64,000 nucleotides of DNA. It comes from Coleofasciculaceae cyanobacterium. Lineage in GTDB: Bacteria > Cyanobacteriota > Vampirovibrionia > Vampirovibrionales > Vampirovibrionaceae. The translations under genes were made by a program, and so were the position numbers. The notes beneath the pieces were generated by a model, which saw nothing but the letters and a program-made list of their open reading frames with translations, made no database searches and had not been told where the DNA came from. How positions within the stretch are numbered: position 1 is the first letter of the stretch; every line of letters starts with the position of its first letter. The DNA lies in contig DATNPJ010000027.1 in NCBI GenBank assembly GCA_036703295.1, positions 32,838 through 96,837 on the forward strand, written 5' to 3'. Shown piece by piece: positions 6,067 to 57,861 of the stretch.

Positions 6067-6176
6067 ATTCATGTTCAGGCGCTTTTGCCAGGAATGCAGC
6101 AGCTTGTATGCCGGCAATAATCAGACGGTTGGTTGATTTGCATTTCTTTAAGAATGCTTGTGTGTTCAGTTGAAGT

Positions 6177-7100
6177 ATGAGATTTTATATTGAATTGATC
6201 TGGCTAGATGATCGTGCATCTCTTGTTTCATCGGTTGGGGCCAGGTCTTGGGTGAGTCGTTTTATTGGGTTTCAATACAAGGGTTTCAAGATGACAGAAC
6301 TTCATTTTGGAAGTTGGCGCAGCCTTTTTCAGCGGGAGCAGCCAAAAGTTGAAAGACGCAGAAGGGACAGGCCGGTGGAGATCGTGCCGCGGCTGGAGTC
6401 CTGGGCTGAGAACCGGGTCGACAGCCAGCAAGATCGGGTTGAGTTTCGCCACACGGCGGATGCTGAAGCACTCCCCGATGTTCAGATGATTCAGTCGAAT
6501 CAATCCGTGCCGCTGGGGCTGTTAGTCACGTCCGAATTTGACGGCGACTATGACAAATTGGCCCAGGTGATACGGGCGCAGCTTCCCGATGGACTTGAGA
6601 AACAGCCGGTGTCGCTGTTGCTTCGGACGGGGGGGCATGCTCTAGGATTTGAGTTTAAAAAATTCGCGGAGGCCCTGGGGATTGACGAGCGGCAGGTTGC
6701 GGAGCCAACAGCCTTCGAGTGTCTTCCGAACCGGATTTACGAAGGCGTTTACAACCACTTGGGTCAATCCAGGGAGCATGCTGCCTGGTCGCTGCCCTAT
6801 CATCGAAGACCGCTCGGCCAGGAAGAGAAAGATGAGACCAAATTTCTCCTGAATGAATATCCTCATCTGAAAGCGATGCTGGTACAGACAGAATGGATGG
6901 TCAAGGGTACGCGTGACTGCCCGCAGAAGACATGGCAACAGGGCTCTCGGGAGAATCATTACCCCTATAGCGTTTACTACATGGAAATCTGGCCAGCGGA
7001 CAAGGCTCCCGAAAAATCGGTTAGAGGCTCCCGGCTAAAGGGGCCTGCAAAGATTTTAGAACAGCATGATGCAATGCGTCAGGGGATTCGAGTGCATTGA
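6177..7100 (+). CDS. Hypothetical protein
   Basis: 307 aa ORF, more plausible start at M 'MTELHFGSW' (about 6291). No recognisable motifs. 3' end overlaps convergent tmk by about 80 nt, so the C-terminus may be over-extended. Confidence 0.3.
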   Translation: MRFYIELIWLDDRASLVSSVGARSWVSRFIGFQYKGFKMTELHFGSWRSLFQREQPKVERRRRDRPVEIVPRLESWAENRVDSQQDRVEFRHTADAEALPDVQMIQSNQSVPLGLLVTSEFDGDYDKLAQVIRAQLPDGLEKQPVSLLLRTGGHALGFEFKKFAEALGIDERQVAEPTAFECLPNRIYEGVYNHLGQSREHAAWSLPYHRRPLGQEEKDETKFLLNEYPHLKAMLVQTEWMVKGTRDCPQKTWQQGSRENHYPYSVYYMEIWPADKAPEKSVRGSRLKGPAKILEQHDAMRQGIRVH

Positions 7101-7659
7101 ACACCTGGATTCGCTCCGGGTCCTGTCCTGCCAGGGCGAGGTAGCCCTCACGCACGCGGGTATGAAAATCCAATGCCTCCCCTTCCATGCGGTCGGCCTG
7201 TCCCCGCCGGGTGACCCGCTGGGCCAGCACTTGCGGATCCCCGTCAAACAGCAAGGTCAGGTCGGGCAGCTTGCCCTGGAGGGCAATGCGGTTGAGTTCC
7301 TGGATGGTTTCCAGCGATAAGCCCCGGCCATAGCCCTGGTAGGCTACCGTGGAGTCCATGTGCCGGTCGCAGAGCACGATTTTTCCTTGTTTCAGTGCGG
7401 GGAACACCACTTCGTCCATGTGCTGCGCGCGATCCGAGATGAAGAGCAGCAGTTCGCTGATGGGAAACACCTGCCCCGGATGGTGGAGCAGGATTTGCCG
7501 CAGTTCCAGCCCGAATTCGGTCCCGCCGGGGTTGCGGGTGACCACCACCTGGCGCCCGGATGCCTCCAGGACTTTGGCCAGTAGTTCCAACTGGGTCGAT
7601 TTCCCCGACCCGTCAATACCCTCAAAGGTAATAAACAATCCACGCCGCTGCTCGTTCAT
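7021..7659 (-). CDS. tmk: Thymidylate kinase
   Basis: 212 aa. P-loop 'FITFEGIDGSGKSTQ', 'DRHMDSTVAYQG' DRY-like motif and LID region typical of dTMP kinase. Confidence 0.85.
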   Translation of the reverse strand: MNEQRRGLFITFEGIDGSGKSTQLELLAKVLEASGRQVVVTRNPGGTEFGLELRQILLHHPGQVFPISELLLFISDRAQHMDEVVFPALKQGKIVLCDRHMDSTVAYQGYGRGLSLETIQELNRIALQGKLPDLTLLFDGDPQVLAQRVTRRGQADRMEGEALDFHTRVREGYLALAGQDPERIQVFNALESPDALHHAVLKSLQAPLAGSL

Positions 7660-7830
7660 GCCAACAGCATAGCAAAAAATAGCCCTCGAAGAGGGGCCGT
7701 GAAGAGGTGATGACGCTGAGATTGTGGGTAACGAATTGTTGCGGGGTGTTGTCTGTTGAACAATTAGCCTTCTTCAGGAGGATTATAAAAATGAATTCTC
7801 AATTTCATTTTAGAAAAGGATGGGGTAAAA

Positions 7831-8364
7831 ATGAAAACGAACTTTTTCTCAGCTCCAATTGAAAAGTTACTCACAAGATCTGATATTAATACAGCAATTG
7901 AAAAAGGGGCAGCGAAAGCGCATCAAGAAATCAAAGAAATGGTAGAAAAAACTTGTAACAAATTGGAAATTGAGGTGCCCCCATATCCCTCTCACGGTGT
8001 TGCTCCAGAAGGACTAAAAATAGGAAAATATACCTTTAAAAGGAAGGGGGAGCCTCCTCTCGCTACAGATGTATATATTTCAAGAACAACTCCTTGTTTG
8101 GTGAGTGATGGTGCGGGATGGAAGGAGCAAATACATCAAGCACATGTCAAGTTTAGGACTCCTGATGGTCTGGATGTTTTAAGCAGCACTATTTTAGCTG
8201 AGGATCAGCCATACAGAATTATAAGTTACGGTGTGAGTAATTTTATGAATCCAAGCCGAGCAATACAAGATCAAGCGCAATCTTCTACTCGAGGGATTCG
8301 TTTAGAACAAATAGAAGGTGCAACGAAGATGCTGTTGGATAAAATTAGTAAGCAAGATATCTAA
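7831..8364 (+). CDS. Hypothetical protein (AT-rich ORFan)
   Basis: 177 aa. The gene and flanks (about 7700-8400) are visibly AT-rich relative to neighbours. Lys/Glu-rich N-terminus. No recognisable family. Confidence 0.4.
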   Translation: MKTNFFSAPIEKLLTRSDINTAIEKGAAKAHQEIKEMVEKTCNKLEIEVPPYPSHGVAPEGLKIGKYTFKRKGEPPLATDVYISRTTPCLVSDGAGWKEQIHQAHVKFRTPDGLDVLSSTILAEDQPYRIISYGVSNFMNPSRAIQDQAQSSTRGIRLEQIEGATKMLLDKISKQDI

Positions 8365-15650: not shown

Positions 15651-16268
15651 CTAGTTTGCAGTATTACCAAAGCCAGCTTCAGCTAAAGCCTCTCCATTAT
15701 TAATTCCGGGCGTACCTCCTTGGAGCAAGTTAAAAGTAGAACGGTGTTGCTGATTGTATATGTCTTTATATGCAACTTCCCCATAAACATATAATGCTTT
15801 TGTCCCGGCTAAAATTTCTGCCCGCTCTCCATCTGTATAGTCATCGTGACTGAGACTCATCCACACCGTTTCTCCGGATTCCAAAGTGAATTTGGAGAGC
15901 AAAATATTCTCAGGATCACCTAACTCGGCTATGGAAGAAGGATATTTTCTGACCGCCATCTTAGCCCAACCTCTGACATCATAAGCAGGAGTTTGGCCAG
16001 AATTTTTTAAACCTAAGGAAACGACCCGAATTCCTCTAGTGTGAAAATTATTAATTTTTACCTGATCAATACCCGCATAAGCCCTTAATTGATGATGCGC
16101 AGTATCTTCGGCAATGTCCGCTTGCCTTAAGGCGATTGCAAACATCAGCACATTGCCAATCAAACTCACTATCAGTAGGCAAATATTAACCCACACAGAG
16201 ATTGTTAATGGCTCTGTTTGAGACACAGATTTACCTAAAAACTTTTTAATTTTTTTCATTAGAATCAA
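15651..16268 (-). CDS. Hypothetical membrane-anchored protein (AT-rich ORFan)
   Basis: 205 aa. N-terminal TM 'VWVNICLLIVSLIGNVLMFAIAL'. The gene and flanks (about 15540-16330) are AT-rich versus neighbours. Confidence 0.4.
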   Translation of the reverse strand: MILMKKIKKFLGKSVSQTEPLTISVWVNICLLIVSLIGNVLMFAIALRQADIAEDTAHHQLRAYAGIDQVKINNFHTRGIRVVSLGLKNSGQTPAYDVRGWAKMAVRKYPSSIAELGDPENILLSKFTLESGETVWMSLSHDDYTDGERAEILAGTKALYVYGEVAYKDIYNQQHRSTFNLLQGGTPGINNGEALAEAGFGNTAN

Positions 16269-28965: not shown

Positions 28966-30162
28966 CTATCCCCGGAAATTCTGCACGCCAGCTTCTTGTG
29001 GGCGCCATGGGTTATAGGGCGGCTGGCTGGCTTTCGGCTGGGCGAGTCTGACCGCCCGCTGTTGCCCCAGCCTAGAGGTCTGTTGCAGACCCTGCCAGGT
29101 TAAGCGTGCATCGTAGTTGCCCAAAGCCGTTTCACGTGCTTTCGCCTGTTCGCGTTGAAATTCGCGCCGGTTCCGCATGGCATTGAACCAGCCTGGGAAC
29201 CAGCCCAGCATACATACGATCAGTATGAAGCCCAGAATGTCTGCGGGCAAACGACGGTTCTGCGCAAATCGAATCACCGAATCCCGAAACGCGCCCTGTG
29301 CATTTTCCGCCATCCTGACGGCCTGCTTGATGCCGGTTTTTTGGGAACTGGCCAGCCATTCCTTCAGTACGTCATCACCGGCTTCCAGGTGTTTGTAGAT
29401 GCCACGGGCCAATGCCATGATTTCTTTCTGGCCTTTTGCGTCGATGGGTGAGGTGGTGGTGACTTGCCGAATCAGTTCCGGCAGGTCCTCCAGGGCAGTA
29501 TCCAGGTGCTTTTTGGCTGCTTCTCCGCCGACTTCGAAAAGACCACCGCTATAAAGTTTTTGCAGGGCTTTTTTCAAGCCCTCGCCACCGCCCTCGCGAA
29601 TCAGACTGACCAGGGCGTGTTCGCTGTCCAGCCGATAGTTGGCGAAACGGGAATAGCTTAAGACCTCACCGCTATGGGGATCGATTAACTGTAGGCCACC
29701 GGTGCCGGGCAGCTTTTGGTAAAACTTGTTGAAAAGCGTGGTGAGGGCTTTCAATCCAAAGACAAACAAGCTGATTGAAATGCTGTCCCGCACCAGGATG
29801 TCCTTGACTTCCCTAAAATCATTGTGGTTCTCCTTGCCGCGTTTCAAGGCGGCATGCAACCGGGCACCCATCATGACCGCAAAAAACAGGAAACAGGCCG
29901 CGCCGATCGGGGCGCTGGTCACCTTCAGTTTTCCTGCTTGCGAGAACTCCCGGAAATCCCAGTCCGCCAGTGTTCGGCCGAATTTAGACAGCGACATAAC
30001 AGCTCGCTGAAACAGGCCTTGGGGTTTTGCGCGGTTCGAGACAAATCGCTCGGTGGCATCCTCGATTTTTTGAGGCAGGGAAAACAGCCAAACTGAGGGA
30101 CGGTGCAAAGCTTTGGTGGTCAAATCAGTGCCGGGCGTGGGACGGAGGGGCGAGATCATCAA
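28966..30162 (-). CDS. Hypothetical bitopic membrane protein, family member 1 of 4
   Basis: 398 aa. Internal hydrophobic helix ('IGAACFLFFAVMMGA'). Near the C-terminus, a helix 'ILGFILIVCMLGWFPGWF' is followed by a basic cluster 'NAMRNRREFQREQ' and a Pro/Gln-rich tail. No known domain. Confidence 0.45.
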   Translation of the reverse strand: MMISPLRPTPGTDLTTKALHRPSVWLFSLPQKIEDATERFVSNRAKPQGLFQRAVMSLSKFGRTLADWDFREFSQAGKLKVTSAPIGAACFLFFAVMMGARLHAALKRGKENHNDFREVKDILVRDSISISLFVFGLKALTTLFNKFYQKLPGTGGLQLIDPHSGEVLSYSRFANYRLDSEHALVSLIREGGGEGLKKALQKLYSGGLFEVGGEAAKKHLDTALEDLPELIRQVTTTSPIDAKGQKEIMALARGIYKHLEAGDDVLKEWLASSQKTGIKQAVRMAENAQGAFRDSVIRFAQNRRLPADILGFILIVCMLGWFPGWFNAMRNRREFQREQAKARETALGNYDARLTWQGLQQTSRLGQQRAVRLAQPKASQPPYNPWRPQEAGVQNFRG

Positions 30163-31646
30163 GCCTGCCCTCCATTATTATTGGCGGCGAAGGGAATAGA
30201 CCTGGGCGCGCCAAGCGGGTTGATGCCTGGGGTTGTCGTCCAAGCGGGAAGGGTTTGAGCGAAGCTCGGGATTCCTGCAGGTACAGGTCTATACTGTTGC
30301 ATGCCGGGTGCCGGACTGGCTGGGGAGTTGTCAGTACTGGGTTGTAGGTTACGGGTGGCCTGGTAAGATTTGCTGCTTTGCGCAAAACGCGTCATGCGTA
30401 TCAGCCAGGCGGTACTCAAAGCGACCAGCGAGAAAACGACCAGTCCCTTCTGGGCGATACTTTGCTTCAAGATGCCTCGCGCGGTTTCAACGAGCGCGGG
30501 GGCCTCCTTGGAAGCCGCCTGGTGTTGCCATAACTTGCGGGGAAACTCACCCCATCGTCGCAGATTCTCTAAAAAGCTTTCCAGTCGGATATTTTCTGCC
30601 GTATGCTCCCGTGACAGTGCCACCCAGGCGTGATCGCTGAATAAAGTCGGTTTGGCGATTGATACGGGCTCTCTCATGCCTTTTCGCATAAACTTGTAAG
30701 GCTCCATGCGGTATTTCCGGTTCACGCTTAACAGTTGTTCCTGAATCTCTTGGCTGATGGTGGTCAGTTGTTTTTCGAGATCGGCGTTAGACAGCGGGGG
30801 ATCGAGCAGGTGGTCCGTCCATGTCTGGAAACGGTTCCGCAAAAAGTCCGTATAGTTGGGCTCTTCCCGTCCGGCCTGGCGAAGCGCCTGCTGAACAGAG
30901 GGATAGTTTTTCAGTTGCTGCCGCAGTACCGGGTCCGCAACCACGGTTTTTTCCAGCAGAGGGTCGACAAAGAGGTTGGCCATATGGTCGGCCACTGCCT
31001 CGCGGTAGCCCTCCTTGCTCAGGGAGGCTTTCGGAGAAGGGAATGCCTCCTGCATGTGCTCAATGAAGCCTTCTCCCAAGCGCTTGAGGGTATTGTAAGG
31101 CATTTCGATCATGTTGCTCAGCGAGTGGCGGCCCACGAAAAATGCCAGGGTCGGGATGGCCAGGATGCCGATGGGTGCGACGATGACTTCTCGTTTAACC
31201 TCCTCCCAGCAGTTTGGCCAGTTGAGCCCTTGCCACGTTTTGGACGCCCAACGCTTGAACTGCTGTGGGAACGGCAGGTTTCGGGTTTCCTCATCCTGAC
31301 GGATATCATATTCCTTGCGGCCGGCCAGCAAGCCGGTAATGAAGCGCCCCGGCCACATACCGCACAAGTCGAGAGAGATGAAACCCCAGAAAAATTTTTC
31401 GGTAATGTTTTTGAAAAGAGGCCGCAGACGATCGTAGAGGGTGTTGATTGTCCTGGAAGCCGTGTGGTTCAGATTGCTGCCAAACCGAAGCTGGTTTGTG
31501 GCTTGCTGAGCCGTGGTTTTTCTCGGCAATGAGTGCACAATCGGACTGGATGGCCGTGTGTTACATCGAATATTCGGATTATTGGATATCAAATCCACCG
31601 AGCACGGGTTCCTTTCACGAGTTGCCTCCATATCAAAGAGCCTCAA
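30159..31646 (-). CDS. Hypothetical bitopic membrane protein, family member 2 of 4
   Basis: 495 aa. Helix 'VIVAPIGILAIPTLAFFVG'. Near the C-terminus, 'LVVFSLVALSTAWLIRMTRF' plus a basic stretch, then a Pro/Ala-rich tail. 4-nt overlap with member 1. Confidence 0.45.
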   Translation of the reverse strand: MRLFDMEATRERNPCSVDLISNNPNIRCNTRPSSPIVHSLPRKTTAQQATNQLRFGSNLNHTASRTINTLYDRLRPLFKNITEKFFWGFISLDLCGMWPGRFITGLLAGRKEYDIRQDEETRNLPFPQQFKRWASKTWQGLNWPNCWEEVKREVIVAPIGILAIPTLAFFVGRHSLSNMIEMPYNTLKRLGEGFIEHMQEAFPSPKASLSKEGYREAVADHMANLFVDPLLEKTVVADPVLRQQLKNYPSVQQALRQAGREEPNYTDFLRNRFQTWTDHLLDPPLSNADLEKQLTTISQEIQEQLLSVNRKYRMEPYKFMRKGMREPVSIAKPTLFSDHAWVALSREHTAENIRLESFLENLRRWGEFPRKLWQHQAASKEAPALVETARGILKQSIAQKGLVVFSLVALSTAWLIRMTRFAQSSKSYQATRNLQPSTDNSPASPAPGMQQYRPVPAGIPSFAQTLPAWTTTPGINPLGAPRSIPFAANNNGGQA

Positions 31647-31792
31647 GGCATCTTGATGCTAGGATGTAAAAAATTATTAATACCCCTTTGCAACCCACGG
31701 GATGGCATTATACACCCAGCAATGTCTCCAAGAAAGTGCGTAACGTTTGGTTAAGCATATAGCACGGTTTCCTACGAGCGGTTTTAATTTGA

Positions 31793-33376
31793 TTGGAAAG
31801 TTTTCTTGGGAATCAGCCACCCTTTGCCAACATGCTAGCACTATCGCCAACAACTCCCCCCTCCGGGAGTATATCGGATTACCAATCCCCTGCCCCCATG
31901 CGGTTTGGCGGGGGGATGGATGCCGTTTCCAGGATGGTTGGCGTGATTGACGGCAACCGGATGATTGAAATGGCCTCGACCGACTTCACGGGTATGTGTG
32001 GCCCCAGGACTTGGATTGAATATCGGGAAAGGGGAGGAGATGCCGCTCGTGAAACCGTCATTCGAGAAGTTGCTGGCGGGATTTGCAACGTGTTCCTGGC
32101 CGGATGGCTCTCCCTGGCAATGCTGGGGATGCTGGGAAATAGCGTCAACCGCTATAACCCGCACGGTCTACCGGGCAAGGCCTGGATCAGTGCCCGCAGT
32201 TTAGAGGCTTTTGGCGGCCTGTATCAGAATATCCTCACCGATACGGCTCATCCGGTGAAGGATCTTTCCGAGGCCCGCGAACGGTTCATCAAGCAGGTGC
32301 TCACGGGGCTGATTTCAGCGGATCAGGCTTCCAGCCGGGTGAGCTTGCCGCAAAGTGCCCGTGAATTGGAACCCCAGGCCCAGGTTAAATATCTGCGGGA
32401 ACTGGTCAAGGATGCGCTACCCGGAGAGGCCTTTGAGAAGCTGTCCGCTGACATCCAGGCGGATAGCCTTGAAAAACAGGCCGAGAAACTGACCGAGGCG
32501 CTCCATCAGGCGAACAACGGCAAACTGACCCGGGAAGCCCAAGAGAGGCTGTATCGGTACTTCTCATTGAAGGCTGGTTCCGATGTCGTCGGCGTTCAGG
32601 GCACCAACCATTTCAACAGGCTGGCCATGGCTCAGGTTCTGGAGGAAAAGGCATACCTGGAGGAAGAGGCCCGGCGGCTGAATCAGCCGGTGACTGATGC
32701 CCTGAAGCATTTTGACGAGGTGAAGGAGTTTAAAGCTGCCCGGCTAAGGCTGAGCCTGGCGGACTTGGATGGTACGGAACGCGAGTTTTTGAAACAGGTC
32801 AGTGGGATTGCCCAATCCGGAAAGCTGACCAGCGCGGTGCATTTGTATGGACCGGACAACCGGTTGCTCCTGAAAACGGGCTTGCTGAAAGATACCGGGC
32901 GGGATGCCCTGTTCGGTGAGCTGAAGCACTTTCTGGAGCAGTTTGTCGACCGGGCCGGCCATGGCATTGACGAAAAGGCGGCTGACTGGAAGCAACAGGT
33001 CCTGCAGACACTGAACCGTCCAAGCGAAAAGCGCGGGTTGTGGAGCAGGCTGATGCCTCAGGCGGATGAGGGCCTGCTGCGAAGCGCGCTGAAAACTAAG
33101 ACCGCCTACACCTGGATTCCGATGCTGGGCGCCGCCCTGGTAGGGATGTCTGTCGGCTTTTTCAACAACTGGCTCACCAAAAAACGTAATGGCGGCAAGG
33201 TCTCCTATCCCGGCGACGGTCCTCCCACCGCCTCTGCGACTTCTGCACCCGTCAATTCCCAAGCGCCAAACGGTCTGGTTTCCAGTGCCGGTGTGGGTAG
33301 CGGCTTAAAACGTTCCAGAGGAGCCTTTGCCCAGTTTCAGGCTCAACGCTTCGGAAACGGAGGCATTCTGGCATGA
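31793..33376 (+). CDS. Hypothetical bitopic membrane protein, family member 3 of 4
   Basis: 527 aa. Helix 'ICNVFLAGWLSLAMLGML', a long coiled-coil-like central region, then 'WIPMLGAALVGMSVGFFNNWLTKKRNGG' followed by a Pro/Ser/Ala-rich tail. Confidence 0.45.
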   Translation: MESFLGNQPPFANMLALSPTTPPSGSISDYQSPAPMRFGGGMDAVSRMVGVIDGNRMIEMASTDFTGMCGPRTWIEYRERGGDAARETVIREVAGGICNVFLAGWLSLAMLGMLGNSVNRYNPHGLPGKAWISARSLEAFGGLYQNILTDTAHPVKDLSEARERFIKQVLTGLISADQASSRVSLPQSARELEPQAQVKYLRELVKDALPGEAFEKLSADIQADSLEKQAEKLTEALHQANNGKLTREAQERLYRYFSLKAGSDVVGVQGTNHFNRLAMAQVLEEKAYLEEEARRLNQPVTDALKHFDEVKEFKAARLRLSLADLDGTEREFLKQVSGIAQSGKLTSAVHLYGPDNRLLLKTGLLKDTGRDALFGELKHFLEQFVDRAGHGIDEKAADWKQQVLQTLNRPSEKRGLWSRLMPQADEGLLRSALKTKTAYTWIPMLGAALVGMSVGFFNNWLTKKRNGGKVSYPGDGPPTASATSAPVNSQAPNGLVSSAGVGSGLKRSRGAFAQFQAQRFGNGGILA

Positions 33377-34266
33377 TGACGCGACCGCTTGCTTCCAAGC
33401 CGTATCCTCAAACGCTAACGTCTTCCGCCGAAAAACAGACGGCCACTCCCCTGCAATTCGGATTCCGTCCGGTGGCTCCTGCAAAAATCGCAGCCAATCG
33501 GCTCATCCGGTTCCTGGACTTTCATGAGCTGGCCGCTACCACCGTGCCGCAGGTTATGGTGATTTATGCGGGCATTATTCTCTCCCGCTTCCTCAGTGCC
33601 ATCCAGCGGATGCGCGAGGATCCGCAACATCGGACCAATGAAATCCGGGAGACGGCTACCCGTGATCCGTTGGGCTATGCCCTGTGGATTTTCGGCATCC
33701 CCTTGCTCCAGCGGGTTTTCCTGAGATTCTGCATTCCCAAGAAATACCGCGAGTCCTTGACTGATGCGAGTATGGCGCCCGAGAGTACGCAAGGGCTCAG
33801 GGGCAAGCTCCGTTGGCTGAATCGGAAGCTGAACCCCTTGCGCTGGTCCATTCCTAGCCGGGAGCAGGTGGATAACCAGATGCGCTATGCCCTGGAGAAA
33901 ATCAAGAAAGCCGGTTTCGGCGAGGGCAGCGCGGAGTTCCAGAAGGTGCATCATTTCTATGAAAAAGGCATGCTCCGCTGGCGGAATATGGCGACCCTGC
34001 TGGGCTGGACGGTGACGATTGGCCTGCTGGGGGTCGGGGTGATGCTGTTCAATATTCAAGCCACCCGAAAACGTAACGCCCAACAGATGAAGTCGGCTGC
34101 CTCGCCAGGCAGAGCCCCTGTTAATCCTGCTTTCGGCAACCCTGCTGTCAGCCGGTATTTGCCGCCGCTACAGCCTGCCAACCGGGTTGCTTTTGCGGCT
34201 TCTCCAGCACGCATCCGGCAAGCGGGCGGGTATCCCACCGGAACCCTTCCCGGACGTCCTGAATAA
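33373..34266 (+). CDS. Hypothetical bitopic membrane protein, family member 4 of 4
   Basis: 297 aa. Helices 'VMVIYAGIILSRFL' and 'YALWIFGIPLL'. Near the C-terminus, 'LLGWTVTIGLLGVGVMLFNIQATRKRNAQQ' followed by a Pro/Ala-rich tail. 4-nt overlap with member 3. Confidence 0.45.
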   Translation: MMTRPLASKPYPQTLTSSAEKQTATPLQFGFRPVAPAKIAANRLIRFLDFHELAATTVPQVMVIYAGIILSRFLSAIQRMREDPQHRTNEIRETATRDPLGYALWIFGIPLLQRVFLRFCIPKKYRESLTDASMAPESTQGLRGKLRWLNRKLNPLRWSIPSREQVDNQMRYALEKIKKAGFGEGSAEFQKVHHFYEKGMLRWRNMATLLGWTVTIGLLGVGVMLFNIQATRKRNAQQMKSAASPGRAPVNPAFGNPAVSRYLPPLQPANRVAFAASPARIRQAGGYPTGTLPGRPE

Positions 34267-36969: not shown

Positions 36970-37106
36970 CCGGCCTGCCGCCGGGATCGTGAGAAAGCCC
37001 GATGTCCGCCAAGCAATTTGAGCCGAATCTCTGTTTTTATTTGTTTAGTGTGTGTTAGTGGCACGTTTGCGTGCCAAGCTATCGAACTGTAAAGAGAGAG
37101 TGTATT

Positions 37107-37529
37107 ATGGCCACATTTGCGCCGAATTCAATGATGACGTTTACAAACCCGTTCCTGAACGGCAGTTCGGGCAGGAATCCATTGGCTGCTATCAATGTGT
37201 TGAACACATGGCGATTCGGAGGCGCAGCTTCCACAGTGGAATTGCAGGGCAATGCCTTCAACCAGGGGATTGGCGTGGGGGCATCTCCATTCGGACAAAC
37301 GGGCGTGCCGCCGATGAATGGCGGTTTTACAGGCTTTATGCCGCAAACCCAGGGATTTCCCACCGGCGCTTTCGATGCCGGGTTTATGAATCCGGGCTTT
37401 GCGTGGAACGCGGGGTTCTTCAATAATGGCGGAATTGACACCGGGTTTCTGAATGCCGGTTTCAGCCCGTTCACACAGTTCCCTTCAGTGTCGCAGCCCT
37501 CGTTTGGGCCGATGGGTTTCTTCGTATAA
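37107..37529 (+). CDS. Gly/Phe-repeat low-complexity protein (hypothetical, possibly secreted)
   Basis: ATG at 37107 preceded by a GAGAG RBS. Product is rich in GF/FG dipeptides ('GFTGFMPQTQGFPTGAFDAGFMNPGFAWNAGFFNNGGIDTGFLNAGFSPF'). Confidence 0.45.
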   Translation: MATFAPNSMMTFTNPFLNGSSGRNPLAAINVLNTWRFGGAASTVELQGNAFNQGIGVGASPFGQTGVPPMNGGFTGFMPQTQGFPTGAFDAGFMNPGFAWNAGFFNNGGIDTGFLNAGFSPFTQFPSVSQPSFGPMGFFV

Positions 37530-43587: not shown

Positions 43588-43607
43588 CCTGTTGGACAAG
43601 TTTCGAA
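43588..43607. repeat. 20-nt motif cctgTtggacaagtttcgaa (copy A of 2)
   Basis: 19/20 identical to a second copy at 47937-47956. Both follow A/T runs in intergenic DNA. Confidence 0.6.
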
Positions 43608-43790
43608 CGACGCTTTATTCCGTTGATGTCTCCGGTATCTGATCAATACGGGCTCTTTTAACGCTGAGCCGTTGACAATCGCTCCCCATCAACCTTGCTC
43701 TTCCTGCGCCAGTAGTGCAACAAGTTGAGCTGAGGCTCCGCATGGTGCGCTGACGCGGTCGAAAGCACTCAATCTGCGAACAAAGAGAGC

Positions 43791-46031: not shown

Positions 46032-47762
46032 TTACAATGGGGGCAGATCAAAAATGAAATAATCGCCCCAGGAAACAAGCGGGGTATGGGCATCAGCCGG
46101 ATACTTGCGTCGGAATCCCTCCAGCCCACCTCTGGTGACAACCACTAGTAAACGCCGACCCCTGGGAAGCGTTTCGTACTCTTTGGGCTCGGGGAAAATA
46201 ATGGGTGCTTTGGCCTGGTGCGCTATCACGGCATTGACCGTATCGGCCTGGGTATAGAAATACCAGGAGAATGGGGCTGTTTTAGCCCAGAAAGCAGTCT
46301 CCCGCTGGTTATAATCCGGTAATTTATCTTTCAGAAGCGCCACCACGGTTTTCATGGATTTTGTATCGGCCCGGTCCTGCCAAAGGAAAGCAAACCAGGC
46401 GCTCGTGGCAAGGCCGAACACCAAGGTAATCAGCAAAATTCCCGCTCCCATCCGGGAAGCGACAGGGCGGGCACTTGTCCGCCAAAGAGCAATTCCAGAC
46501 AGCAATAGCGCCAAGCTGTATCCAATAAACCCAAACATTTGGAGGCGGAACGTTTTCAAGTAAACCAGGGCCAGCCCAAATCCGGACAGTAAGGTCAAAA
46601 TGGCCATCCAGGAGATACACGAGGCTGGCTCCAGAAGGGAAAACCGGAGGGGTACTGTCTGGTTGCGCAGCCGGTGTATTTCCAGGCTAAGCAACCGTGC
46701 GCAAAGAATGGCCAGGGGGGGAAAGCTAGTCAGCAGGTAGGGCATCAGCATGGAACGGGCAAAGGTAAAGAATATGGGCGTAAAAATAACCCAGGCGCTC
46801 AACAACAGAATGGAATCAGGAACACGCCAGCCTCTCTCGTGCCATAGAGTCTTTAACCATGCGCCAACTGGCAGGAGAAACACCCCCCACGGCAGGAAGG
46901 ACAGCAATAAAAACGGCCAGGCCATCCCATAAGGCTGATGGTGTCCGGCCCCATAGCGGTCCCCGTAATCACTTTTCAGATACCGCAGAAAATGTTCGTG
47001 CACGAAAAAGTAGTTGAAAAAGTCGGGGTTGGCTTGCTGCATCGCTAAATACCAGGGGAGTGACACGATTGCGGCAACGGGCAGCACAATCAACCAGCGT
47101 GGCGTAAAAAGCAAACCCAGGTTACGTTTGAATAAGCCGAAAAGAAAGATGGACCCTAGAAACAACACCAGCGACACGGGACCTTTGTTCAACATCCCAA
47201 ACCCGAACCAAAGCCCCAGCAGGATTTCATACAGAGCTCGCTGCCAAACACGTCTTTCTCGCGCGGCCTTCAGGATGCATAGATAAGCCCACATGCTGGC
47301 GGTGGTCATCAGGCACACGCCCATATCCATGGAAACCGTCCCGCACTCCACAAAAAAAAGCAGATTGGAGAAAAGGATCAAAGGGGCCAGCAAGGCAGTC
47401 CGCCGATCAAACAGCTTGCGGGCAACCAGAAACGTAAACCACAGAGTCAGTAGGCCTTCAATAAAATTCGGAAAGCGGGCGGAGAATTCATTACATCCAA
47501 AAACCATGAACGAAAGGGCGGTCAACCAGTATGACAATGGGGGCTTCCCCAGAAAAGGCTGATGAAAAGCGGGAATATAAGGCGTAATCCAGTCCTGCCG
47601 AAGGATCATTTGCTGAGCAATATTCGCGTAGCGATTTTCGGTTGTGTCGAAAAGCGGTGCAGTACCAAGCGACAGTAATCGCAATAATGCCAAACCCCCC
47701 ACCAGTAGGCAACAAGTCGTAAAAAAAGGAACTGCCTTTCGTGTTAGTTGCAAAAAAGACAC
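46032..47762 (-). CDS. GT39/GT83-type (ArnT/PMT-like) polytopic glycosyltransferase
   Basis: 576 aa, more than 10 TM helices. N-terminal loop 'TENRYANIAQQM...GKPPLSYWL' resembles the ArnT/PMT DE-motif region. Confidence 0.7.
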   Translation of the reverse strand: MSFLQLTRKAVPFFTTCCLLVGGLALLRLLSLGTAPLFDTTENRYANIAQQMILRQDWITPYIPAFHQPFLGKPPLSYWLTALSFMVFGCNEFSARFPNFIEGLLTLWFTFLVARKLFDRRTALLAPLILFSNLLFFVECGTVSMDMGVCLMTTASMWAYLCILKAARERRVWQRALYEILLGLWFGFGMLNKGPVSLVLFLGSIFLFGLFKRNLGLLFTPRWLIVLPVAAIVSLPWYLAMQQANPDFFNYFFVHEHFLRYLKSDYGDRYGAGHHQPYGMAWPFLLLSFLPWGVFLLPVGAWLKTLWHERGWRVPDSILLLSAWVIFTPIFFTFARSMLMPYLLTSFPPLAILCARLLSLEIHRLRNQTVPLRFSLLEPASCISWMAILTLLSGFGLALVYLKTFRLQMFGFIGYSLALLLSGIALWRTSARPVASRMGAGILLITLVFGLATSAWFAFLWQDRADTKSMKTVVALLKDKLPDYNQRETAFWAKTAPFSWYFYTQADTVNAVIAHQAKAPIIFPEPKEYETLPRGRRLLVVVTRGGLEGFRRKYPADAHTPLVSWGDYFIFDLPPL

Positions 47763-47936
47763 TAATTCAACCGCTTTCGAAATCTGAGAATCTGATTATA
47801 TTTATACCTCGGTCTATCTCATCCAACAAAGCCTTCTTGCTCAAACGAAAATACAAGGACTTGCCGGCATTCCCAAACGGCAAGCTCCCCCAAGCCACAC
47901 AAAGCAAATTGGCCTGTTTTGTTTTTATAAATGCCC

Positions 47937-47956
47937 CCTGCTGGACAAGTTTCGAA
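47937..47956. repeat. 20-nt motif cctgCtggacaagtttcgaa (copy B of 2)
   Basis: See copy A. Lies at the left edge of the AT-rich islet that ends at tRNA-Arg. Confidence 0.6.
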
Positions 47957-48233
47957 TGGCGTTGCTGGAAAGCGAATGCTGTCTAGCCCAATCTATCCAA
48001 CAAATGCAGCCTTAAACGGTTCCTTTTCTTGGTCTCAGGTCAACCGTAAGTATAGAAGGCGGTATGGAGGATAAAAGTCTAGTTCCTCCGTAGACTTTTG
48101 GGCGCTTTCTTGGAGACTTTAAGTATTAAGAATTGTAAATTTATCTAAAAGCCAAGACAGTTATTATTTATGAGGTGTGTTGTTGGGGTACAGCTTATAA
48201 CTTCACACGGACAAGCCGGAAGCATAGAACCCT

Positions 48234-49172
48234 ATGAACATAAATAGCCCTATGAACTTTCCAGTTGGAAGACATCATCTTGTATCTCCAAAATTTGGAT
48301 GGAAAAAGCAAGATTTAGAGAAAGACCCTTCGCGATGGCTGATTCATTTGGGAGTCGGCAAGGATAAAGACGTCATCTGGTCCAAAAACCGTCTGATACC
48401 CACCCAAAAACTAATTCATAAAGCATACAATATGCTCAACAGAACTTCCCTGGAGACTCCAGGTTTTCTGGTCATTGATAATATTGGCGACTTTGTTCAT
48501 ACTGAAAAAGGGCGACAACGCTTTCAAAATGAACTGTATCAAGGTGTCAACGACCTTTTTGAAAGAGCTATTCAAAAGGAAAGTACCTCCTCTCACATTC
48601 GTTCAGAACATGTTGAGACGAGAGAATTCAGACAAAAAGACGGCGCATTCAAACAGCCTTGTGGCTTCATGAGCGCTGCAAAGTTTACGTTAAAACGTTT
48701 TCACCATGATTCTCACACGATAATCGCATCCCATATCTATGACAAAGTTTATGGCATCAAAGGCGGCCAATTCATTCTTTTTGATGATTTGCAATATGCA
48801 AAAGATAAGAATGTAGCTGGCGGGCATACATCTCTCTATGAGCTTGAGCAAAACAAGCATGAATTCCCTTGTTCTCCGGTCTTAAAAGAAAAGTATAAAG
48901 ATCGAATTGGTGATTACACTTTCGAAATTGACACCATTCCTGAAAAAGGCAGCAATGGAAGACGCCAACCAAAGTTGATCATGTTTAATAACTTGTTTGA
49001 TGGCGTTGCTCATGGTGCAAGAGAGTTTGCAAGAATGTCACCACACTGGATGAGAAGTTATGCCCGGATTTTCTCCAGGCTATCCCGACACGGTGAAGAG
49101 CTCATCTGGGATAAGCTTCCGTTCCATCACCCTGATCATCACAACGCCAGCCGCTTAGAAGCATCATCATAG
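48234..49172 (+). CDS. Hypothetical protein (AT-rich ORFan)
   Basis: 312 aa, His-rich ('HHDSHTIIASHIYDK', 'FHHPDHHNAS'). Compositionally distinct from core genes. No recognisable family. Confidence 0.45.
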   Translation: MNINSPMNFPVGRHHLVSPKFGWKKQDLEKDPSRWLIHLGVGKDKDVIWSKNRLIPTQKLIHKAYNMLNRTSLETPGFLVIDNIGDFVHTEKGRQRFQNELYQGVNDLFERAIQKESTSSHIRSEHVETREFRQKDGAFKQPCGFMSAAKFTLKRFHHDSHTIIASHIYDKVYGIKGGQFILFDDLQYAKDKNVAGGHTSLYELEQNKHEFPCSPVLKEKYKDRIGDYTFEIDTIPEKGSNGRRQPKLIMFNNLFDGVAHGAREFARMSPHWMRSYARIFSRLSRHGEELIWDKLPFHHPDHHNASRLEASS

Positions 49173-49184
49173 AAAGAGTCTGCC

Positions 49185-49922
49185 ATGAGAATACCCAGCT
49201 ATAATTTTCAATCTTTTTCCAATGCTTCAAGCAGACATCATTCTCTGGCTGCTCATTTTTATTCGCAAGACCGCGTTTTCTTTGGAGGTATTCCTTTACA
49301 ACAACAAGCTTTAAGAGCGCTGGAAAAGGAGAATGTTCAGGGTTTTAACAAAATAAAACAACGTTTGGACAAACAAAAAACACCACTTGATTTATCAGGA
49401 TATGATTTTTCAGGCAAGATGCTACCTGGAATTGACTTGTCTGGCCTGAATTTGACGGGTGCCATTTTTACGAATGGTACAGATCTGACCAATGCAAAGC
49501 TCAGGAAAGCCCTGTTGCTTCGTATTGTCACAGACAATTCTACAACATGGACCGGAACGCCGTTTGATTCCACTCTCCCAATTAATGGGCCAAGCCTTAA
49601 AACCCTCATACAGAAATATAACTTCGAAGTAGAAGATCACTGTCTCGTTGGCTATCGAACCAATGGCTCTGTTAAAGGTGGTTTTACTTATGAGCTAGGG
49701 AAAAATTACAAATCGGATTTGTTCAGTCGTGATAAACAAAGCAGACACCACGGCTTATGGTTTTATCCTTCTACTGATATTGTGCGCCGACTGCATCCTG
49801 GTGAACCGATTATCAAAGTGCTTGTGCCCTATGGGGATTCTAACAAAACCAATTTAGTCAAGGGCGATTTGGATTTTCGTGCGCCAGAATTAACAGTATC
49901 AGATTTTCTTGGGGAAAACTGA
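49185..49922 (+). CDS. Pentapeptide-repeat protein
   Basis: 245 aa. Central 'DLSGYDFSGKMLPGIDLSGLNLTGAIFTNGTDLTNAKL' is a run of A(D/N)LxX pentapeptide repeats. AT-rich coding. Starts 13 nt after the previous ORF. Confidence 0.6.
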   Translation: MRIPSYNFQSFSNASSRHHSLAAHFYSQDRVFFGGIPLQQQALRALEKENVQGFNKIKQRLDKQKTPLDLSGYDFSGKMLPGIDLSGLNLTGAIFTNGTDLTNAKLRKALLLRIVTDNSTTWTGTPFDSTLPINGPSLKTLIQKYNFEVEDHCLVGYRTNGSVKGGFTYELGKNYKSDLFSRDKQSRHHGLWFYPSTDIVRRLHPGEPIIKVLVPYGDSNKTNLVKGDLDFRAPELTVSDFLGEN

Positions 49923-50175
49923 CAGATCTCCACAGATCCTTTATCTTCCCTATTTTTGGTGATTATATACTTAACGTACCTAGTCTTGAGGCGGCGCTCC
50001 ATATGGATCGGTTTTGCCATTGGGCTGGGAGAAGCTATCCACAAAGGCAAAATCAGGGCCTATGACGAATATCTTCGGTGTTGCCCCTCATTAGACTCGA
50101 ACCTCCTAAAACACAGAAATATAAACCGTTTCACCCACTATTTCAAATATCCCGGCTTTCCGGAAAAATCACGAA

Positions 50176-50207
50176 AAAGCCCTTCAATCCTAGCTGAAGG
50201 GCTTTTT
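50176..50207. terminator. Hairpin plus T/A-run terminator immediately 3' of tRNA-Arg (bidirectional)
   Basis: aaagcccttca / loop atcctagc / tgaagggcttt, with T-run on the + strand and an A-run giving a U-run on the - strand. Confidence 0.6.
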
Positions 50208-50209
50208 CG

Positions 50210-50283
50210 TACCCCCGGAGCGACTCGAACGCCCGACATGCTCCTTAGGACGGAGCCGTTCTATCCAACTGAACTACGGGGGC
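50210..50283 (-). tRNA. tRNA-Arg (anticodon CCU)
   Basis: Reverse complement folds as a cloverleaf: GCCCCCG / GTTC-AGTTGGATA-GAAC / GCTCC-GTCCTAA-GGAGC / GGGCG-TTCGAGT-CGCTC / CGGGGGT. The G1:U72 wobble makes the exact ends slightly uncertain. No encoded CCA. Confidence 0.75.
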
Positions 50284-50438: not shown

Positions 50439-50717
50439 TTGAGGGCACCAAGCACAGGGTGCCCGATGAGACGAAACATTCAGATTGCACTGGACGAGGA
50501 TACCGCCGAATTTCTGGACTTGTGCCAGACGGATGACAGTGCTCACGCGATCAGCACTTTTATTAACAGCCTGCTCAGACAGGAACGCTTCCGGCAGGGC
50601 TATCCCGCAGGTGGCGTAGTGGATATTTCCAGCCAGCCCAAGCGTAATGCCATAGAAGAGGCTATGCTTCGCCGAAGCGGACTACTCCCGCTACCCCGCA
50701 GGCCGCGCCGCCGATAG
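50439..50717 (+). CDS. Possible ribbon-helix-helix (CopG-like) small DNA-binding protein
   Basis: N-terminus 'MRRNIQIALDEDTAEFLDL' fits the RHH beta-strand-helix pattern. Basic Pro/Arg C-terminus. Confidence 0.3.
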   Translation: MRAPSTGCPMRRNIQIALDEDTAEFLDLCQTDDSAHAISTFINSLLRQERFRQGYPAGGVVDISSQPKRNAIEEAMLRRSGLLPLPRRPRRR

Positions 50718-55527: not shown

Positions 55528-56139
55528 TTAGGCATTTTGGTCAAGGTGTGTGGAGATATGGCGGGACTTAATTCTGTCATAAGCGTCTTCTCTGGCTTGA
55601 GGAGACAAGGGAGCCTGGGTGTTTTTGCCCAATAACTCATCGGCGAAGCGTTTTACCTGGTTCCTGAAGAACTGGTTGATTTGTGCATTTGTGGATTCAG
55701 GAGATGAATCTTTTTCCCAAATCGGTACGTGGGGGTATTCCTTGTTCCAAGTTCTGCCAGGCGTCAAATTCTGCTTGCCACGGTATAAATCGGCTTCCAG
55801 CCGATACCAATCGCCCTGATCCCCTTCTCCTTTATTCCAGACCCCCATGGGGTGCGCTTTCACAACGATCCGGTCGGTTTTGTTGTTGCCGATCTTCCTT
55901 AGTGTTTTACGCCAGGAGGGGGACTGGAGCGAGGTGTCATTCAGTGCATTCTGAATAATCTTGTCCAGGGGGCTCGTGGTATTGCCATCCCCGACTTGAA
56001 CTTTCTTAAGTGAGTCATCAAGCACAATCTTTGCGCCGAACTGGGGCGGGTGAGCAGTGGGTCGGATCCTATTCATCGGTTCTTCCTTTCTTCTTTCAAT
56101 CAGACTTCTTAAAGCGCTGGGCGGCAAGGGCAACGTCAT
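55528..56139 (-). CDS. Hypothetical protein, tandem paralogue 2 (QFGAKI...GNNxTD family)
   Basis: 203 aa. Shares 'PPQFGAKIVLDDSLKKVQV...TS...ALND...SWRKTLRKIGNNKTD...YRLEADLYRGKQN' blocks with the upstream ORF. Confidence 0.45.
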   Translation of the reverse strand: MTLPLPPSALRSLIERRKEEPMNRIRPTAHPPQFGAKIVLDDSLKKVQVGDGNTTSPLDKIIQNALNDTSLQSPSWRKTLRKIGNNKTDRIVVKAHPMGVWNKGEGDQGDWYRLEADLYRGKQNLTPGRTWNKEYPHVPIWEKDSSPESTNAQINQFFRNQVKRFADELLGKNTQAPLSPQAREDAYDRIKSRHISTHLDQNA

Positions 56140-56581
56140 TCACCCAGGTTTGTATATTAGGTATTAGACTTGATCGTCTTAACGGTTCCAACGGCAGCAT
56201 TGTTCTCACCACATTGGCGTGATTCCAAGCTCCATGCCAGGAAGTCGTCTTGGCTGTTTGTTGATTACGCTTATATCGGGCTTCAACCGTATAAAAATTC
56301 TTTTTGTAGGGCTCGTCCCTAATGCTCAGCGCCACCGTATCCGTGTCATTGTTGCCGGCTGCTTCAATCAATGTCCGGGCGGACGGTTGTCCCTGCAACC
56401 CGTCGGGTTGCACCTTGGCCAACGCCCGATTCACCAAGTGGGCCACCGATGTGACACCTTCGTCTCGCGTGTAGACTTTTGCTTTAATGATTGATTGATC
56501 AAACTGAATCTTGGCGCCGAACTGGAGATTGGAAGGCATATTACGAACACCCGGCATTGGAGGACCCTCATTATCTTGCAT
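56096..56581 (-). CDS. Hypothetical protein, tandem paralogue 1 (QFGAKI...GNNxTD family)
   Basis: 161 aa. 'LQFGAKIQFDQSIIKAKVY...TS...ALAKV...SARTLIEAAGNNDTD...YTVEARYKRNQQ'. Overlaps paralogue 2 by 44 nt, so one of the two starts is probably internal. Confidence 0.45.
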   Translation of the reverse strand: MQDNEGPPMPGVRNMPSNLQFGAKIQFDQSIIKAKVYTRDEGVTSVAHLVNRALAKVQPDGLQGQPSARTLIEAAGNNDTDTVALSIRDEPYKKNFYTVEARYKRNQQTAKTTSWHGAWNHANVVRTMLPLEPLRRSSLIPNIQTWVNDVALAAQRFKKSD

Positions 56582-57186: not shown

Positions 57187-57861
57187 GTGGTTAGATACCT
57201 ATGCACTTGGACGATTAATCTTGGAGTATTCCCCATGAAACTCAAATCTTCCACCTATACTTCTCCTAACTGCCCACTCCGTTACGGCCAAAGCAGACCG
57301 CAGACGATCCAGTTTGGCGGTCATGGGGACTCTTACGAGCCTACCTTGAAGCAAAAATACATTCCGGTAACGGTTGGAAAAGGGAAAAACAAGAAGACGG
57401 TTTTCTGCATGCCCAACAGCCCGTTTGGAAACCCCTGCGAAGACTGGTCCGAGGTGGCCAAAAGCGTCCAAAAGCAATTGGAAGCTTATCAGAACTTGAA
57501 AGACCCTACCCATAGCGTGGATATTCCGGAAAGCGAATTGGCGCGAGACGCTGAGGATAGCCATTCACCGAAAAATCTGTTTTTGGGTTGTGGTTTGGAA
57601 GCGGTCGTTCAAAACCAGCAAGCTACACTGATGGCGGGTCCCAACTTCCGAGCCCTCTATATTCCCGAAGAACATTGCATGTACATCGTGAACCGATATC
57701 ATGCCGAGAAGCCGGGTGATGGCGTCAAAGTTTTCCTGAACAAACAAAATGACCCCAACCGCTTTGAGCTGAAAAATTTATACCTCAACAACCCTTTTTT
57801 TAACGTGCATGACTATTTTGCGTGGCAGGTCTATTGCTGGGCAAATCATTTAGCGAAATAG
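57187..57861 (+). CDS. Hypothetical protein
   Basis: Probable start at 'MKLKSS' (about 57235). Contains 'QFGGHGDS', weakly reminiscent of the QFGAKI motif of the tandem paralogues. Cys-containing. No recognisable family. Confidence 0.35.
   Translation: MVRYLCTWTINLGVFPMKLKSSTYTSPNCPLRYGQSRPQTIQFGGHGDSYEPTLKQKYIPVTVGKGKNKKTVFCMPNSPFGNPCEDWSEVAKSVQKQLEAYQNLKDPTHSVDIPESELARDAEDSHSPKNLFLGCGLEAVVQNQQATLMAGPNFRALYIPEEHCMYIVNRYHAEKPGDGVKVFLNKQNDPNRFELKNLYLNNPFFNVHDYFAWQVYCWANHLAK

Follow-up and report, generated by a model that had tools for sequence, protein, structure and literature searches.

An AT-rich two-gene islet beside tRNA-Arg(CCU), a candidate laterally moving cassette of effector-like proteins in a Vampirovibrionales-like genome

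The 64-kb stretch of DNA analysed here (the window) contains, at positions 47763–50283, an AT-rich islet that lies between a gene encoding an ArnT-like glycosyltransferase and a tRNA-Arg(CCU) gene. The islet, a genuine accessory segment of atypical composition, carries two open reading frames (ORFs), ORF1 and ORF2. The interpretation that we prefer, and to which we give an even chance, is that these genes belong to a predatory Melainabacteria lineage, move laterally as a cassette, and encode effector-like proteins that are probably exported. Seen as a classical genomic island, the islet is nothing unusual and lacks mechanistic support.

In the window, AT content peaks in the islet proper (47763–50208; 2.4 kb). 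The guanine–cytosine (GC) content of 400-nucleotide (nt) intervals is 0.395–0.44 over positions ~47800–50199, compared with 0.52–0.55 on the side of the ArnT-like gene and 0.525–0.60 from the tRNA onwards. The two lowest 1-kb bins are 48001–49000 (0.399) and 49001–50000 (0.428); the other bins range from 0.47 to 0.63. The GC content at third codon positions (GC3) is 0.394 in ORF1 (z-score −2.4) and 0.351 in ORF2 (z-score −2.8), against 0.643 ± 0.103 in the 58 other ORFs of the window. An earlier description of this DNA (hereafter the sequence-only reading) had called the islet visibly richer in AT than its surroundings and had proposed a check of GC content and codon usage, and the values above bear it out. 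The two co-oriented, nearly abutting ORFs that it had placed at 48234–49172 and 49185–49922 were confirmed, as was a tRNA-Arg on the minus strand with its 3′ end towards the islet. The layout is as follows.

46032–47762, minus strand: gene for the ArnT-like GT39/PMT_2 glycosyltransferase (PMT_2, 6e-19; PMT, 2e-16), of normal composition; it borders the islet on the left.
47763–48233: AT-rich divergent intergenic region from the ArnT-like start to ORF1 (GC 0.425), which holds copy B of a 22-nt motif.
48234–49172, plus strand: ORF1, 312 amino acids (aa), His-rich, GC3 0.394.
49185–49922, plus strand: ORF2, 245 aa, starting 12 nt past ORF1, GC3 0.351.
49923–50208: AT-rich spacer from the ORF2 stop to the tRNA 3′ end (GC 0.441).
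50170–50211, minus strand: terminator-like hairpin, an inverted repeat of 16 nt with 100% complementarity, followed by a T-run.
50209–50283, minus strand: intact tRNA-Arg(CCU), the right border of the islet (ARAGORN, anticodon CCT; Rfam RF00005, 55.7 bits).

In the terminator scan, the hairpin located 3′ of tRNA-Arg has 18 pairs and is followed by ATTTTTCC. It is an intrinsic-terminator-like element of the tRNA gene and, being bidirectional, possibly serves ORF2 too; a terminator hairpin right behind a tRNA is ordinary tRNA gene anatomy. The RNA fold of the ORF1 5′ region is unremarkable (z-score +0.69), and the Rfam scan matched the tRNA alone. Two AT-rich ORFans elsewhere in the window, at 7831–8364 (plus strand) and 15651–16268 (minus strand), are further small compositional islets, with a GC content of 0.39–0.40 and GC3 of 0.29–0.35 (z-scores −3.4 and −2.9); neither has a Pfam match.

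Close relatives of the two proteins are few. Among 5.8e9 proteins, ORF1 has three (identical, 71%, and 53% identical), and ORF2 has two (identical, and P0005 with 66% identity). A further ORF2 homologue with 50% identity (E = 1e-66), encoded at L002:9020–9790 on the minus strand, was overlooked by the word-based search. ORF1 and ORF2 lie side by side in three genomes, namely the window, the Vampirovibrionales metagenome-assembled genome (MAG) L001, and the Vampirovibrionales-like contig L002, and the three contexts are unrelated. In the window, the pair is surrounded by the ArnT-like gene, the tRNA, and fliJ. In L001, it has the same tandem arrangement, with a Sel1-repeat gene upstream and a phage-like block downstream (L001:12030–20260), which includes genes for a terminase-small-subunit-like protein (phrog_9231, 3e-8) and for an 854-aa primase (phrog_47, 1.4e-9). 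In L002, the 53% ORF1 copy and the ORF2 homologue are divergently transcribed, and two AvrB_AvrC genes are found 7 kb off. All three copies are located in local GC troughs, which in L001 and L002 lie ~10 points below the flanks. No tRNA adjoins the cassette in L001, where the nearest one is a tRNA-Leu at 7.7 kb, or in L002, where there is none within 21 kb.

At the nucleotide level, the window and L001 are similar only over 48287–49891, that is, the two coding sequences, and the similarity breaks off where these end. The left spacer (47763–48233) has no nucleotide similarity to the L001 and L002 loci, and the right spacer (49923–50208) has none to other loci. The level of identity between the window and L001 is 71% for ORF1 and 66% for ORF2, versus 59% for a DEAD-box helicase of identical length, a single comparator gene that could be a paralogue. 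Because only the two coding sequences are shared, their contexts differ, and their identity is above that of the helicase, the pair behaves as a mobile cassette, and we favour the view that a 1.6-kb two-gene unit may move laterally within the lineage. The two genes would then be functionally coupled and would pass among Vampirovibrionales-type genomes; in the window, the cassette, devoid of mobility genes, would have lodged between the ArnT-like gene and tRNA-Arg(CCU).

The ArnT side of the islet can be compared with the L009 contig (ENA, GROS21-1…scaffold_819), which carries orthologues of the ArnT-like gene (65% identity) and of its GT2 neighbour (69%). Upstream of the ArnT start, L009 has another, unrelated AT-rich island, over 10 kb long (L009:1–9800; GC 0.37–0.45 vs. 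0.50–0.60), with genes for a tyrosine integrase, an HTH_17 protein, two reverse-transcriptase-like proteins (retron- or group-II-like), and an Mrr-type nuclease. ORF1 and ORF2 are absent from this DNA, which suggests variability at the ArnT-proximal junction. The comparison of orthologous loci proposed in the sequence-only reading thus gave an answer on one side: the pair is missing at the L009 ArnT junction and occurs elsewhere in L001 and L002, and the tRNA-Arg/fliJ side lies beyond the reach of the contigs. That the islet is horizontally acquired accessory DNA, as the same reading had supposed, is supported by its foreign composition, by the three different contexts of the pair, and by its absence from the L009 locus.

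The same facts can be explained by vertical inheritance, if ORF1 and ORF2 are lineage-specific genes that are AT-rich owing to gene-specific constraints (low expression, silencing, or relaxed codon adaptation) and their contexts differ by general rearrangement. Synteny is indeed poor among these MAGs, and the neighbours of ArnT differ in L009, L010, and L012; however, the nucleotide homology ends sharply at the cassette, the search with ArnT gave no close match from the L001 genome, and in L001 the cassette adjoins phage-like genes. An AT shift is found in the ORF1-family genes of every genome examined, very divergent copies included, and the identical contigs recovered from four samples indicate a stable arrangement. 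The lineage-specific N-terminal motif described below would also mean that any donor came from the same lineage. The identity values again point the other way, exceeding that of the helicase for both proteins. Relative conservation in the Melainabacteria genome L008 also speaks for the cassette: compared with the window, its pyruvate:ferredoxin oxidoreductase (PFOR) and ribonucleotide reductase (RNR) are 60–73% identical, whereas its ORF1-family member reaches 30%. We consider vertical inheritance an unlikely explanation and retain the mobile cassette.

The sequence-only reading had recognised the geometry of tRNA-targeted integration in the islet. According to this explanation, an integrative element at the 3′ end of tRNA-Arg(CCU) lost its integrase and attachment (att) sites and left two cargo genes behind. 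One hallmark of such islands, compositional deviation, is present (GC 0.40–0.44 vs. ~0.55), and the 3′ end of the tRNA does point at the AT-rich DNA. The tyrosine integrase and the HTH_17 gene, which is excisionase-like, beside the L009 ArnT start indicate that the neighbourhood accepts integrative elements, and the phage-like genes next to the cassette in L001 would also fit. However, the only two coding-quality ORFs of the islet match neither integrases nor transposases, in agreement with the earlier reading, and no pseudogene signal of an integrase was found. The 10-nt copy of the T-arm reported at 50094–50103 (gactcgaacc) is shorter than claimed: the tRNA reads gactcgaacG there, leaving nine matching nt (50094–50102). 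There are 27 9-mer matches to the tRNA across the window; shuffled islets contain 0.8 on average and at least one in 48% of trials. The match of 9–10 nt is at chance level, and no tRNA-derived match of at least 11 nt was found in the islet. Direct and inverted repeats at the islet ends are short, at chance level, and unconvincing, and the suggested search of the islet boundary for a second, direct copy of the tRNA 3′ end revealed no att-like repeat. The cassette stands away from tRNA genes in L001 and L002, between-genome homology ends at the ends of the coding sequences, so that there is no shared island backbone, and the hairpin directly behind the tRNA is part of ordinary tRNA gene anatomy. 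With no integrase, no att-like repeat, and no tRNA adjacency in L001 and L002, the proposed tRNA-targeted integration is not supported, and a decayed tRNA-targeted island is improbable in our estimation. The likeness to tRNA-associated islands, islets, and morons with effector genes lies in the AT-rich accessory DNA at a tRNA 3′ end, in accessory cargo with effector-like evolution, and in related genomes that have other islands or phage-like genes beside the same cargo. Unlike tRNA-associated islands, the cassette has no integrase, att repeats, or shared backbone, and it is adjacent to a tRNA in only one of three genomes.

A repeat does occur at the far edge of the islet, where the sequence-only reading had noted copy B of a 20-nt motif. 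The motif is real and 22 nt long (CCTGYTGGACAAGTTTCGAAYG), with direct copies on the plus strand at 43588–43609 and 47937–47958 (two in the window, zero expected by chance) and similarity extending to ~25/30 matching nt. The two copies do not flank the islet; they bracket a 4.35-kb block, in which GT2 and the ArnT-like gene are accompanied by a lipoprotein-like and an LTXXQ/Spy-like gene. The repeat is absent at the orthologous L009 locus; it may be the site of a regulator or the scar of a recombination event. We also considered whether the motif (TGGACAAGTTTCGAA) is sigma-54-like and rejected this by eye, as the GG-N10-GC spacing is not matched.

A feature that links ORF1 and ORF2 with other proteins of the lineage is their N-terminus. 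Both begin with a Ser/Pro/Asn-rich, acid-poor leader of ~20–35 residues ending in Φ-[R/Q/K/H]-F-G-[small], and unrelated hypothetical proteins of the lineage have a non-hydrophobic start of 10–40 residues with the same ending. The leader ends in SPK-FG-W in ORF1, RVF-FG-G in ORF2, and RIC-FG-V and RAR-FG-T in the two AvrB-like proteins of L002; FG(W/L) is conserved across the remote ORF1 family, and several proteins of L001, L008, and L009 also carry the leader. The motif [RQKH]FG[GASTW] was counted at aa 6–70, with the expectation taken from its rate in the rest of the proteins. It is present in 10 of the 60 window ORFs, against 0.26 expected (one occurrence in 15,118 aa of the rest of the proteins), and in 6 of 90 ORFs from related Melainabacteria loci, against 1.1 expected; it was not found in any of 714 control ORFs, which had been retrieved with FlgE and come from other taxa (2.0 expected). 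Two of the ten window ORFs are probably non-genes, and the other eight are Pfam-less. These strict-motif genes of the window, and the leader-carrying proteins at other loci, are the following.

6177–7100, plus strand, window: strict motif.
30159–31646, minus strand, window: strict motif.
31793–33376, plus strand, window: strict motif.
37071–37529, plus strand, window: strict motif.
55528–56139, minus strand, window: strict motif.
56096–56581, minus strand, window: strict motif.
57187–57861, plus strand, window: strict motif.
48234–49172, plus strand, window: ORF1, strict motif.
L001:2442–3287: protein with the leader.
L002:13314–13691: protein with the leader.
L002:18015–19073: protein with the leader.
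L002:19118–20149: protein with the leader.
L008:4929–5624, minus strand: protein with the leader.
L008:9070–9714, minus strand: protein with the leader.
L009:18255–19229: protein with the leader.

The product of 33373–34266 (plus strand; LQ-FG-F) fits the motif loosely, as does ORF2. Most carriers are unrelated to one another, and the GC content of their genes is normal, unlike that of ORF1 and ORF2. The leaders contain 13% Pro, 12% Ser, and 7% Asn, with Asp and Glu together at 2.5%; such a Ser/Pro-rich, acid-poor composition recalls type III-style N-terminal signals. The enrichment of the FG motif is a strong statistical observation, and its meaning as an export or processing signal is what we infer from it. 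Given that the leader is common to hypothetical proteins of the lineage and to AvrB-like proteins, ORF1 and ORF2 are most likely exported or prey-directed. The leader argues for an adaptation of ORF1 and ORF2 to the lineage, and the donor of the cassette, if there was one, would then have been a relative. Of two other motifs considered, the flagellar gate-recognition motif FxxxΦ was rejected by eye, with a hydrophobic residue at +4 in only 6 of 17 leader sequences, and the Prp/L27 cleavage motif (…LQFF|A) may bear a loose resemblance to the leader.

The AvrB-like genes of L002 (18015–19073 and 19118–20149) are tandem paralogues of the AvrB_AvrC family, a type III effector family of plant pathogens; their products are 48% identical, the genes are AT-shifted, and both proteins have FG leaders. 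Their similarity to solved AvrB is at the 9e-4 level. They share with ORF1 and ORF2 the leader ending in R-x-F-G and the AT shift; ORF1 and ORF2 have no sequence similarity to AvrB, and the link is formed by leader and neighbourhood only. In the window, the gene at 37071–37529 (plus strand) encodes a 152-aa protein in which the FG leader precedes a low-complexity region rich in Gly, Phe, and Asn (GF/FG repeats), with a weak Pentapeptide_2 match under the cut-off (E = 0.005). The region 28966–34266 contains four Pfam-less genes for proteins of 297–527 aa, three of them with the FG leader; three of the proteins have two hydrophobic segments, the 31793–33376 product has one, and the products of the genes at 28966 and 33373 are distant paralogues.

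ORF1 is His-rich, as stated in the sequence-only reading (20 of 312 residues, 6.4%). Its family is sparse and uncharacterised: nothing significant was found in Pfam, NCBIfam, PHROGs, PADLOC, and PDB sequences and profiles, and an exhaustive profile search of 1.84e9 representatives gave 26 family members at E ≤ 1e-3. At least 90% of 28 distant members keep H157, D159, Y169, and G177–G178, and H260 and R278 are invariant across the six closest members. The family consensus is K..H.D…H.YGP..NV.GG…..D … FNN….G..HGAT … R…R.S. The conserved spacing consists of H-x-D, ~17 residues, G-G-x-[FL]-x-x-[FL]-D, and then a distal H and R-x-x-x-R-x-S. An HxD…H triad followed by a basic residue is the order found in Fe(II)/2-oxoglutarate (2OG) dioxygenases, and the ORF1 family has it; we take this order and spacing to represent the metal triad and 2OG-binding arginine of prolyl-hydroxylase or PF10014-type dioxygenases. 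ORF1, in view of its HxD…H triad and RxS motif, is most likely a metal-dependent enzyme and probably Fe(II)/2OG-dioxygenase-like. The order of triad and arginine and the approximate spacing are those of prolyl-4-hydroxylase/PHD and of PF10014 (IDO/HilB) enzymes. Unlike in known dioxygenases, ~100 residues with a variable insert separate HxD from the distal His, and the family has an extra conserved N-terminal domain of ~100 residues. One family member matched the HilB dioxygenase (E = 0.14), which is no more than chance would give with 28 queries. A Foldseek search of the PDB with the ORF1 model gave nothing at E < 1.

In L086 and L087, the ORF1-family genes are AT-shifted relative to their neighbours. 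The genome L087 (GCA_019634025.1) has three tandem ORF1-family paralogues at 4930–8039, which are 45–47% identical, all begin with …PRFGLKG, and have a GC content under that of the neighbouring genes. As the family is sparse, AT-shifted, and tandemly triplicated in L087, its evolutionary pattern is that of fast-evolving accessory, effector-like genes.

ORF2 consists of the leader, two predicted helices, ~12 pentapeptide repeats (aa ~63–127, ~3 coils), and a C-terminal domain (aa ~128–240). The repeats are marginally above the Pfam Pentapeptide (PF00805) cut-off (20.8 bits vs. 20.2; aa 75–107). The profile of ORF2 orthologues matched pentapeptide proteins of the PDB at 8e-9 to 1e-5 and NleL at 3e-3 (aa 64–113 only). 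Among NCBIfam models, the family matched PipB (best, 1.8e-5), PipB2, HetL, and MfpA, all far under the cut-offs. A Foldseek search with the ORF2 model gave only weak pentapeptide matches; the superposition with NleL (root-mean-square deviation 1.8–1.9 Å over ~50 residues) was not significant. The C-terminal domain is well conserved (GYR…KGG[FW]TYE.G..Y.SD.FSRDK.SR.HGL.FYP…DFRAP) and has no Pfam match and no detectable relative outside the three orthologues. A phage-type ‘GYK…GxxYxxG…GxH’ domain of the kind that follows pentapeptide repeats was sought in Pfam (C-terminal domains, E ≤ 10) and PHROGs (full-length ORF2 family), and none was found. The profile searches that the sequence-only reading had suggested for both products thus gave no significant match for ORF1 and generic pentapeptide repeats for ORF2. 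Its description of ORF2 as a pentapeptide-repeat protein stands for ~12 repeats and does not cover the rest of the 245 aa.

Qnr, MfpA, AlbG, and McbG consist almost entirely of repeats, have ~180–220 aa and 8–10 coils, and are dimeric and DNA-sized (structures 2bm4, 3pss, and 6zt4). ORF2 has in common with them the A(D/N)LXX-type repeat, which forms a right-handed quadrilateral beta-helix; however, its ~3 coils are accompanied by two other domains, the remaining 180 aa are non-repeat, and it fails the NCBIfam models (19.1 bits with MfpA, where the cut-off is 360; E = 0.12 with SmQnr for one of the three members). With a three-coil helix inside a multidomain protein, ORF2 is, judging by its predicted architecture, not a DNA mimic of the Qnr/MfpA/AlbG type. 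The sequence-only reading had considered such a mimic (Qnr, McbG, AlbG) and, with it, a toxin–immunity or effector–modulator pair in which ORF2 would give immunity against ORF1. The tight linkage (a 12-nt spacer in the window, adjacency in three genomes) is what one would expect of such a pair; however, the genes are divergent and not in an operon in L002, and remote ORF1-family genes have no ORF2-like partner (L008 and L086) or occur as tandem paralogues (L087). The presence of pentapeptide repeats in ORF2 would suit the immunity role, but there are only ~12 of them, in a multidomain protein that scores 19 bits against the MfpA cut-off of 360. ORF1 and ORF2 were matched by no toxin or defence-system models in scans of Pfam, NCBIfam, PHROGs, and PADLOC. 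Both proteins have leader-like N-termini of the same type; the shared leader implies that both products are handled alike, as two exported proteins would be, and fits less well with a toxin whose immunity protein stays in the cytoplasm. A toxin–immunity pair therefore appears very unlikely.

A closer architectural parallel is offered by PipB and PipB2 of Salmonella, EspY3 of enterohaemorrhagic Escherichia coli, and SopA/NleL, which, like ORF2, are multidomain and have a pentapeptide beta-helix module behind an N-terminal non-repeat segment. In comparison with PipB/NleL effectors, only the generic repeat is in common, and the scores are far under the family cut-offs. Pentapeptide repeats with unknown function occur in type III secretion system effectors (PMC6313403). 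ORF2 would combine a short pentapeptide beta-helix scaffold with a novel C-terminal domain and is most likely the partner of ORF1, an adaptor, or a second effector.

Several results weigh against a mobile cassette of exported effectors, in addition to the single comparator gene mentioned above. Searches of the islet DNA and both proteins against plasmid, phage, and IMG/VR collections gave no match that would reveal a transfer vehicle. What the data show are the composition and linkage of the pair, its differing contexts and narrow distribution, and the enrichment of the motif; export, enzymatic activity, and the route of transfer we infer. No empty orthologous tRNA-Arg/fliJ site was recovered; the metagenome contigs bearing FlgE (88–90% and 66% identical) end before the junction. 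Profile searches in Pfam, NCBIfam, and the PDB lent no support to a dioxygenase assignment. An hhalign comparison of the ORF1 family with PHD2 placed HxD and GG in register (H313/D315) at a probability of 0.4% and E = 0.15, the template being a single sequence of low sensitivity (the human catalytic domain, checked to be identical to PDB 2g1m_A). The AlphaFold2 models, with a predicted local distance difference test (pLDDT) score of 40 for ORF1 (3-sequence alignment) and 49.5 for ORF2 (2-sequence alignment), were unusable. The FG motif was defined post hoc, on other loci, and the window counts were made afterwards; the leader of ORF2 (VFFGG) and that of its L002 homologue (IQFRGA) fit it only loosely. 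We know of no secretion system that recognises an FG leader and of no injectisome in the Vampirovibrionales lineage.

The closest ORF1 homologue in a named genome belongs to a Vampirovibrionales MAG, and a remote one to a Candidatus Melainabacteria MAG. The window contains flagellar genes in three clusters: flhBA; fliRPO with a FliMN_C-domain C-ring switch gene (FliM/FliN-type); and fliJK-flgDE. Neither fliH nor fliI is in the window, and the earlier view that the islet occupies the place where these two genes would be expected has no support in this gene order. Other window genes encode heptosyltransferases, PFOR, class II RNR, a DisA-type cyclase, and LdpA. Judging from its genes, the source genome is Vampirovibrionales-like. 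An identical ORF2 protein (P0004) is labelled ‘Coleofasciculaceae cyanobacterium’ in one source; its contig carries flagellar genes, and its nearest relatives are Vampirovibrionales/Melainabacteria MAGs. This label is doubtful because of the flagellar, Melainabacteria-like gene content and probably stems from a MAG contig that was binned or classified wrongly. Between the tRNA and fliJ, there is a small ORF at 50439–50717 (plus strand; 83 aa in public contigs); the N-terminus of its product (…IQIALDEDTAEFLD…) resembles a ribbon-helix-helix protein by eye, and the ORF has no Pfam match.

To our knowledge, no members of the cyanobacterial phylum other than Vampirovibrionales are predatory. For Vampirovibrio, a predator with flagella, effector delivery into Chlorella via a conjugative type IV secretion system has been proposed (PMC4451040). 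Prey attack is known from genome-based proposals of this kind, which name the conjugative system and unspecified hydrolytic ‘effectors’ (PMC4451040). Against this background, a lineage-restricted mobile cassette would supply concrete effector candidates: a putative metal-dependent enzyme and its beta-helix partner, found near AvrB-like genes in a relative. Both protein families and their shared leader are uncharacterised, and the island itself is ordinary. We put forward tentatively, as a possibility somewhat on the doubtful side, that the FG leader may be an undescribed Vampirovibrionales export or processing signal on secreted, prey-directed, or envelope proteins (~1/6 of the window genes). 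ORF1 and ORF2 would then be exchanged effectors, an enzyme and its partner, that use this signal, with ORF1 performing dioxygenase-type chemistry on an algal or cyanobacterial prey target. If the FG leader is a true targeting signal, the exported proteome of the lineage would be predictable from sequence.

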